A DNA stretch of 63,577 bases, filler included, from Collodictyon triciliatum (taxonomy: Eukaryota): assembly GCA_043381765.1 (NCBI GenBank). It is 47 parts of 47 records of this genome, joined end to end, with 100 filler letters (N's around TTAATTAATTAA, not from the genome) between each part and the next. Parts side by side here need not be neighbours in the genome. Positions count along the whole stretch, not along the records: positions 55,571 to 56,821 come from JBHJMP010011687.1; 46 more parts are not named here. The stretch is one strand, 5' to 3'. Numbering within the stretch: position 1 is the first letter of the stretch; every line of letters begins with the position of its first letter. Shown here piece by piece: positions 56,320 through 56,821 of this stretch. The position numbers and the translations under genes were made by a program. The notes below the pieces were generated by a model. That model was not told the origin of the DNA and did not search any database. It saw only the letters and a list, made by a program, of their open reading frames with translations.

Positions 56320-56821
56320 TTCCTTTTATTCGATTCAAAGTGCAGCGAGGTTATGCCATACAAAGGGGCGAGATAGGTGCGTATGGTAGAAAGCAAACGC
56401 GAGTAAGAGAAGACGCTACCGTGGAGGGGCTAGCACTGGAAAGAAGTCAGTGATAACGAGTTGGTCAGGTGGGCGTCCCAACTGGTTGATTGGTTGCGTC
56501 GGTAGCATGTGTTGGATATGTTGTGGGAGATATCGCACGACACATTCCCACATCTCTCTTCGCTTGCGGTCAGAGTAGCAGAGGATGCGGGCGTGTTTCA
56601 GCAGGCTGTTCAGGAAGCTGTATTGCACGAGGCTCTCAAGCCTGGCTACATTGATTTCTCGTTCGGATGAACCATTAGAGCAAGATAATGCACGCACAAT
56701 CCACAAGGAACACAACATATGTCCCCTTGTGACTGTCCAGAGTATTCTAGAGTCGTGGGTCATTTGGTATTGTGCGCCAAACAGGATGTCGAATAGTGCT
56801 GCATTACTGTATCTTCGAAAT
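56320..56821 (-). mobile_element. LINE family A ORF2 C-terminus and 3' UTR
   Basis: WTVTRGHMLCSLWIVR...YSFLNSLLKHARILCYSDRKRREMW...DQLVITDFFPVLAPPR*; ends CTTTGAATCGAATAAAAGGAA. Confidence 0.9.

Follow-up and report, generated by a model that had tools for sequence, protein, structure and literature searches.

Motifs that bind sliding clamps are widespread on the enzymes of transposition: they are described on the Pogo transposase, on bacterial Tn7, on insertion sequence (IS) transposases and on ORF2p, the second open reading frame product of the human long interspersed nuclear element (LINE) L1 (PMC5371812). The Tigger and Lemi1 transposases also carry a PCNA-interacting (PIP) box, and Ac has a putative one (PMC5371812). 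Here we describe a candidate PIP box, Q-x-x-I-T-D-[F/Y]-F, close to the C-terminus of ORF2 fragments from L1-type elements that do not carry long terminal repeats (non-LTR retrotransposons), found in 63,577 bases of DNA from Collodictyon triciliatum (assembly GCA_043381765.1); this whole stretch is referred to as the window. Clamp motifs on mobile-element enzymes are already known, and the C-terminal position of a PIP box on a LINE ORF2 is the new variation. A search of a full-text library, covering main texts, found no report of a C-terminal PIP box on ORF2 of a LINE or other non-LTR element.

In human L1 ORF2p, the PIP motif lies between the endonuclease and reverse transcriptase domains, as a preliminary description of the window had correctly stated; it forms a helix (residues 404-419, in the tower) that packs against the palm and fingers and is required for retrotransposition (PMC10830420). 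In the human protein, PCNA binding depends on this motif, and the proposed course is that PCNA is drawn to the L1 lesion as it develops and brings RNase H2 with it (PMC10830420, PMC5478143). PCNA is one of very few host factors that bind ORF2p directly and are needed for retrotransposition, and its role there is debated (PMC5478143). The elements in the window resemble human L1 in having an L1-type ORF2 with a canonical PIP motif, and human ORF2p is the best structural match to their C-terminal domain. They differ from human L1 in that the motif lies in a low-confidence tail after the C-terminal domain, rather than in a helix between endonuclease and reverse transcriptase, and in that it contains a T-D pair; binding to PCNA is here a prediction from sequence.

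The PIP box of the Pogo transposase is C-terminal. Pogo is likewise a mobile-element enzyme, and its PIP box, QKKITDYF, has the same ITDYF core as one of the two families in the window, family B (PMC8191301). The role of the motif in transposition is as unclear for Pogo as it is here. Pogo is, however, a DDE cut-and-paste DNA transposase and not a reverse transcriptase, and its x2 and x3 positions are basic (KK), whereas those in the window are hydrophobic. Bacterial transposases (Tn7 TnsE and several IS families) offer a more distant parallel, a host-clamp docking peptide on a mobile-element enzyme (PMC5371812, PMC4549789), but theirs addresses the bacterial clamp, uses another motif and belongs to DNA transposons.

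Conservation of a motif in the ORF2 tail

The preliminary description had located the motif at five sites in the window; at four of these the motif lies exactly as placed, and the fifth is a frameshifted remnant. Family A carries QLVITDFF at 56440-56463 on the minus strand of contig 42 (codons CAA CTC GTT ATC ACT GAC TTC TTT) and QLAITDFF at 21776-21799 on the plus strand of contig 17. Family B carries QFLITDYF at 37266-37289 (minus strand, contig 28), followed by SATR with a basic residue at +4, and a decayed QSLITDSF, with S at position 7, at 38455-38478 (plus strand, contig 29). The fifth site is a family B remnant at the edge of contig 6 (approximately 6808-6863, minus strand), in which the motif was destroyed by a 1-nt deletion, causing a frameshift, together with an I-to-S change. 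The five sites lie on five separate short contigs, and their mutual order and spacing are meaningless because the window is an artificial concatenation.

Every intact copy has the motif close to the stop codon, inside the translated ORF2 frame and read in the same phase as the C-terminal domain. Contrary to what had been supposed, the motif is not the very end of these proteins: it is followed by 7 residues in family A (PVLAPPR, then the stop) and by 14 residues in family B (SATRPPISVHANDG, then the stop).

The tails of the two families had been described as unalignable outside the motif. This is so for the ~28-residue linker that runs from the last conserved tryptophan to the motif, in which identity is 13%, but not for the C-terminal domain, which is homologous throughout (31% identity over 122 amino acids, E 6e-15 by tblastn). 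To the copies in the window we added a metagenome locus that is a relative of family A (L001) and a number of protein relatives (P-numbered). Members of the P0001 group have QTAITDFF (P0001 and P0011) or QTVITDFF (P0009), and P0006 has QSVITNFF, in each case at the same aligned place. Four lineages were compared: family A (the copies in the window with L001, P0005 and P0014), the P0001 group, family B and P0006.

Pairwise identity among the four lineages is 51% in the folded core (180/355) and 13% in the linker (22/168), but rises to 83% at the six PIP consensus positions (30/36). At the two free positions within the motif, x2 and x3, identity is 8% (1/12), and in the six residues after the motif it is 28% (10/36). 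Thus, the claim that the motif was kept across diverged lineages while its flanks drifted is borne out. Among the 42 ungapped columns of the tail, the invariant positions are Q1, I4, T5, F8 and a proline six residues past the motif, and when sets of six columns were drawn at random from these 42, only 3 of 200000 sets reached 30/36. A six-frame translation of the window contains 15 strict matches to Qxx[ILM]xx[FY][FY], of which 3 are in these tails, at homologous positions; the other 12 are outside these elements, and most of them have a nearby stop codon or low-complexity run.

The canonical PIP consensus is matched by QLVITDFF, QLAITDFF, QFLITDYF, QTAITDFF, QTVITDFF and QSVITNFF, and is not matched by the contig 29 copy (S7), P0008 (a deletion within the box) or P0007 (N4). 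P0004 is frameshifted at the box. The boxes of P0004, P0008 and contig 29 are those of decayed copies; the contig 29 copy has an in-frame TAG at 38380-38382 and is dead.

Copies differ in the codons of the motif without a change of residue: Q is CAA or CAG, I is ATC or ATT, T is ACT or ACC, D is GAC or GAT, and F8 is TTT or TTC. Replacements in intact copies are limited to x2 and x3 and to an exchange of F and Y at position 7 that the consensus permits. Among the many family A copies in sequencing run X2, the only variants listed within 56440-56463 are 56446 G>A (D, synonymous), 56461 T>C (Q, synonymous) and 56456 A>G (V to A, at x3). The ratio of non-synonymous to synonymous rates (dN/dS) is 0.42 between contig 42 and L001 in family A (9 synonymous and 13 non-synonymous differences). 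These patterns bear on whether the conservation could reside in the nucleic acid, for example in a 3'-terminal RNA element (the element's 3' end is ~120 nt away from the motif), or could be a functionless ancestral relic. It is in keeping with an RNA element that LINEs of the stringent type recognise their own 3' tails (PMC4176376) and that, within a family, the tail and the 3' untranslated region (UTR) are 92-96% identical between copies. However, Q, I, T, D and F are kept between lineages while their codons change at the wobble position; the free codons vary, as does the adjoining linker, and the random column sets show how seldom such a cluster arises in this tail. Moreover, no cross-family DNA match was found between the 3' UTRs of families A and B. 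We regard conservation at the nucleotide level, or as a relic, as highly improbable. Because the consensus is kept, the free positions and the linker drift, and the codons change synonymously, the conservation is read as that of a peptide motif under purifying selection, and not as that of a nucleic-acid signal or an ancestral remnant. By this evidence, selection acts on Q-x-x-I-T-D-[F/Y]-F as a short linear motif in the ORF2 tail of a small L1-type clade.

The proline six residues past the motif is the sole conserved position of the tail outside the PIP consensus (FFPVLASP, FFAVLHPP, YFSATRPP and FFSIIPNP in the four lineages). Its codon is at 56422-56424 (minus strand) in family A and at 37246-37248 (minus strand) in family B. 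A reading of the tail as a PAM2 motif was rejected by eye, since the positions required for PAM2 do not fit and the proline relevant to that reading is not shared.

Candidate partners of the tail

The match to the PIP consensus noted in the preliminary description is close: the ITD[FY]F core is that of the Pogo PIP box, and the motif also resembles the Cdt1 PIP box, QRRVTDFF (PMC8191301). In a p21 frame, the Pogo and Cdt1 PIP sequences bound human PCNA at about 9 nM, and the Thr5-Asp6 pair is tied to part of high PCNA affinity (PMC8191301). This pair is found in families A and B and in the P0001 group, while P0006 has TN. The motif is most likely a canonical strong PIP box of the 'TD' type, and PCNA is its most probable partner.

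The predicted structure of the tail is compatible with such a role. In a model of the relative P0009, the predicted local distance difference test score (pLDDT) is below 50 throughout residues 321-345, which contain the motif (329-336), with the exception of residue 333. Because the score falls below 50 after a helical domain, we read the motif-bearing tail as flexible and accessible to the clamp. Flexible regions are the usual setting of such motifs.

We estimate a probability of roughly 0.6 that the tail docks ORF2p on PCNA at a nicked or primed target or at a fork. The tail peptide would dock in the hydrophobic pocket of host PCNA that is loaded at a nicked or primed target, or that is already present at a replication fork, and docking would hold ORF2p at the intermediate of target-primed reverse transcription. 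Alternatively, the docked tail may recruit clamp-bound repair factors that complete the insertion, as has been proposed for the internal PIP box of human L1. The step of the insertion cycle at which the tail acts, and the coupling of insertion to replication or repair put forward in the preliminary description, are what we infer from the motif. If PCNA docking is correct, a second L1-type clade has a selected strong PIP box elsewhere in the protein, which would argue that clamp recruitment is general to the mechanism instead of a mammalian quirk. It would also be a further case of convergence on sliding clamps by a mobile element (PMC5371812). Such a terminal and probably flexible tag would be a simpler object of study, since its removal or exchange would leave the fold intact, which is not so for the PIP helix of human ORF2p (PMC10830420).

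The T-D pair raises the question of whether the tail acts mainly as a PIP degron, such that ORF2p docked on chromatin-bound PCNA would be destroyed via the ubiquitin ligase CRL4-Cdt2 and retrotransposition would be confined to a brief period, either as host defence or as self-restraint. A PIP degron is defined as a canonical PIP box with T5-D6 and a basic residue at +4 (PMC8871960). Families A and B and the P0001 group have the TD pair of the Cdt1, p21 and Set8 degrons, and family B, P0009 and P0011 also have their basic residue at +4 (PMC8871960), so that the full degron pattern is found in family B (QFLITDYF-SATR), P0009 (AVPR) and P0011 (AVIR). Unlike those degrons, family A, P0001 and P0006 have no basic residue at +4 but A, H and P, respectively, and the contig 29 copy has Q there; P0006 in addition has N in place of D6, and the likeness to known degrons is one of sequence. 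Because a basic +4 residue is confined to some members of the clade, a degron does not explain conservation in all four lineages, and because it presupposes PCNA binding, it extends rather than replaces the PCNA-docking explanation. We consider a primarily degron function quite unlikely; a degron may instead be a lineage-specific layer atop clamp binding. A broader proposal joins both ideas: PCNA docking on a free C-terminal tail, instead of or besides an internal helix, would make clamp recruitment recurrent in L1-type target-primed reverse transcription, possibly by independent gain, and in the lineages with Arg at +4 the box would be a full CRL4-Cdt2 degron, such that the enzyme is drawn to loaded PCNA and degraded on the spot, a one-shot insertion switch coupled to S phase. 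This combined proposal seems unlikely to us.

A peptide with FF could also be read by a partner other than PCNA, such as a protein that binds a Rev1-interacting region (RIR), an Mlh1-type site, an Atg8-type pocket for LC3-interacting regions (LIRs), or the element's own ORF1 protein or ribonucleoprotein particle. PIP-like motifs overlap with RIR motifs and with Mlh1-interacting protein (MIP) motifs. Three of the four lineages fit the pattern [F/Y]xx[V/I] preceded by an acidic or polar residue (FFPV, FFAV and FFSI), but family B (YFSA) is outside this LIR-like pattern. The PIP consensus accounts for the invariant Q1, I4 and T5, whereas RIR, MIP or LIR motifs do not. Furthermore, an RIR has to form a helix, which the proline immediately behind FF in family A makes less likely. 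Thus, another partner appears unlikely, and docking on PCNA is the explanation we prefer.

Several observations weigh against a selected PCNA-docking tail. First, with respect to the predicted affinity, basic flanking residues raise that of PIP boxes (PMC8191301), while here x2 and x3 are hydrophobic (LV, LA, FL), the family A flanks have no basic residues, and a proline directly follows FF in family A. Second, dN/dS is 1.07, that is neutral, between the two family B copies, one of which has lost the motif, and both this value and that for family A rest on small counts. Further variants of run X2 beyond those listed may include one that lies in the motif. Third, P0007 has QYFNTPFF, in which the N at position 4 is non-canonical; it is possibly a decayed copy or a lineage that has lost the box. 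Finally, all copies are fragments on contigs of ≤1.8 kb and none is demonstrably active; no full-length element was found, the searches for longer proteins with P0001 and with an open frame from contig 7 being empty, and the structural match to human ORF2p is modest (Z 9.2, under the level of about 13 for helical folds).

The elements that carry the motif

The identification of these sequences as LINE ORF2 stands in part. It is supported by zf-RVT domains (PF13966) in the relatives P0009 (34.1 bits) and P0013 (36.6 bits; cut-off 27.5) and by the structural match to human ORF2p, but within the window there are fragments only, with a weak zf-RVT and a reverse transcriptase (RVT_1) fragment. The zf-RVT in the contig 29 piece scores 17.7 bits (E 0.0056), below the cut-off, because the contig end cuts the zinc knuckle. 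The RVT_1 fragment (37533-37883, plus strand) scores 30.3 bits (cut-off 29.6), on the strand opposite to the adjoining family B tail. Pfam found 0 families in the family A piece. The nearest clusters in the ESM Atlas are zf-RVT proteins from plants, oomycetes, fungi and green algae (scores 0.95-0.96), a recognition below the tool's threshold that serves as a lead only.

The AlphaFold2 model of P0009, built from a 16-row alignment, has a mean pLDDT of 52, with a helical domain at ~172-320 (pLDDT 60-89) whose last long helix is 294-316. Among 48161 solved chains, the best match to the model is human L1 ORF2p (9hdo_A; Z 9.2, root-mean-square deviation 3.8, 155 residues aligned), in which model residues 137-318 align with chain residues 807-1265. 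This is the sole match with Z ≥8, the next having Z 7.2, and the tool's own note gives a Z of about 13 as the point from which helical folds are convincing; the fold match is thus supportive, not decisive, for an L1-type ORF2. A Foldseek search of the PDB returned nothing at E ≤ 0.001, and a sequence profile search of the PDB gave 0 matches.

Relatives of these elements are few. The family A piece has only 8 relatives among 1.84 billion representative proteins, and a profile search of 5.8 billion clusters yielded 14, none of them on a contig longer than 1.8 kb; these contigs come from ENA, JGI or Logan. A pattern scan of metagenomes gave 156 matches that reduced to 3 loci, of which only L001 is truly related; L002 and L003, with 34 residues matched (E 2e-5 and 7e-5), are probably chance matches and were set aside. 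A pattern scan of genome contigs gave 26 pattern matches, with no relative among them. In the freshwater and lake metagenome runs, shares were ≤0.28. The longer-protein searches recovered no 5' half, no APE-type endonuclease and no linker between endonuclease and reverse transcriptase; because no such linker was recovered, these elements may have an internal PIP box as well. From these fragments, we assign the elements to a small clade of L1-type non-LTR retrotransposons that is narrow in its distribution and has been sampled poorly.

The copies in the window are dispersed in the manner of LINEs: they are truncated on the 5' side, finish alike with AATAAA and an A-rich tail, and have different flanks. 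The contig 42 copy of family A is a 134-amino acid fragment of the ORF2 C-terminal domain (56419-56820, minus strand) that runs off the contig end at 56821; its stop codon is at 56416-56418, and it is 93% identical in DNA to L001. Its 3' UTR (56322-56415, minus strand) ends ...GAATCGAATAAA(A)GG, as delimited by alignment of three copies whose flanks differ beyond this point. These three copies (contig 42, contig 17 and L001) have a common tail, stop codon and ~95 nt of 3' UTR, which ends with GAATCGAATAAAGG and a short A run, and then diverge. The contig 17 copy consists of the last 33 codons and stop (21722-21823, plus strand), at the contig start. In family B, the contig 28 copy is a 5'-truncated ORF2 tail (37224-37526, minus strand) with its stop at 37221-37223 and a 3' UTR that extends to ~37153, and the contig 29 copy (37984-38523, plus strand) includes part of the zinc knuckle (...ESIEHTFVQCP...). 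These two family B copies have a common 3' UTR with an A-rich end and then diverge.

Family A is a high-copy repeat: in run X2, 179 contigs lie on the family A stretch, depth is in the hundreds to ~4000 over most of it, and many different sequences abut 56320-56325. Loose ends occur at this point both in run X2 and in run X1, the latter being one of the freshwater and lake metagenome runs. In the RNA runs X15 (a polyA library) and X16, contigs cover 56524-56790 only, at 90-93% identity, and leave the motif uncovered, a weak hint of transcription of a related copy, not of the tail itself.

Contig 7 has two pieces of family A. One is a severely 5'-truncated copy of 123 bp (8341-8463, plus strand) that starts just past the motif and is 96% identical to L001 935-1055, and the other is an ORF2 segment from just upstream of the zinc knuckle (9190-9408, plus strand), 95% identical to L001 1-219. 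Ahead of the latter, a 274-amino acid open frame with no Pfam match (8450-9271) probably belongs to the same element. The order along 8341-9408, in which the 123-bp family A 3' end is directly followed by the 274-amino acid frame and then by the ORF2 segment, suggests that one family A copy inserted right behind the tail of another. On contig 28, the family B tail (minus strand, 37526 down to 37224) abuts the N-terminal fragment of a reverse transcriptase (plus strand, 37533-37883), a geometry compatible with a twin-priming inversion of the L1 kind or with a nested insertion. Two 28-nt sequences, at 2096-2123 and 58664-58691 (both minus strand), match L001 1029-1056, at the very 3' end of family A, at 100% and 93%, and may be very short truncated copies or mere A-rich similarity.

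Composition of the window

The window is a pseudo-molecule of 47 unrelated contigs of 1251-1259 bp each, ordered almost strictly by descending length. The contigs are joined by identical linkers of 100 bp, composed of 44 N, TTAATTAATTAA and another 44 N (for example at 1260-1359, 21620-21719 and 56822-56921), with a stop in all six frames. GC content varies from 0.25 to 0.53 between contigs, and microsatellites terminate many of them. A Pfam scan of 91 open frames identified eukaryotic families (BART/ARL2-binding, MORN, LRR, 60S acidic ribosomal protein, ABC transporter membrane domain and WD40), and the whole looks like a fragmented eukaryotic assembly.

Four features of individual contigs stand apart from the elements described above. 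At the end of contig 29 (approximately 39100-39237, plus strand), 3' of the family B copy, there is a tandem repeat of which one frame reads the repeated unit …FAQKPRFPLVLHKNHVSLWFCTKTTFPFG…. A 416-amino acid open frame that spans an entire contig (54221-55468, plus strand) encodes near-identical WD40 repeats (…VTPDGSKIVSGS…TIKIWNLSDGALIRTLTGH…). Two more open frames fill their contigs, at 13583-14836 (minus strand, 418 amino acids) and at 59625-60872 (minus strand, 416 amino acids), and have no Pfam family at E ≤ 1e-4.

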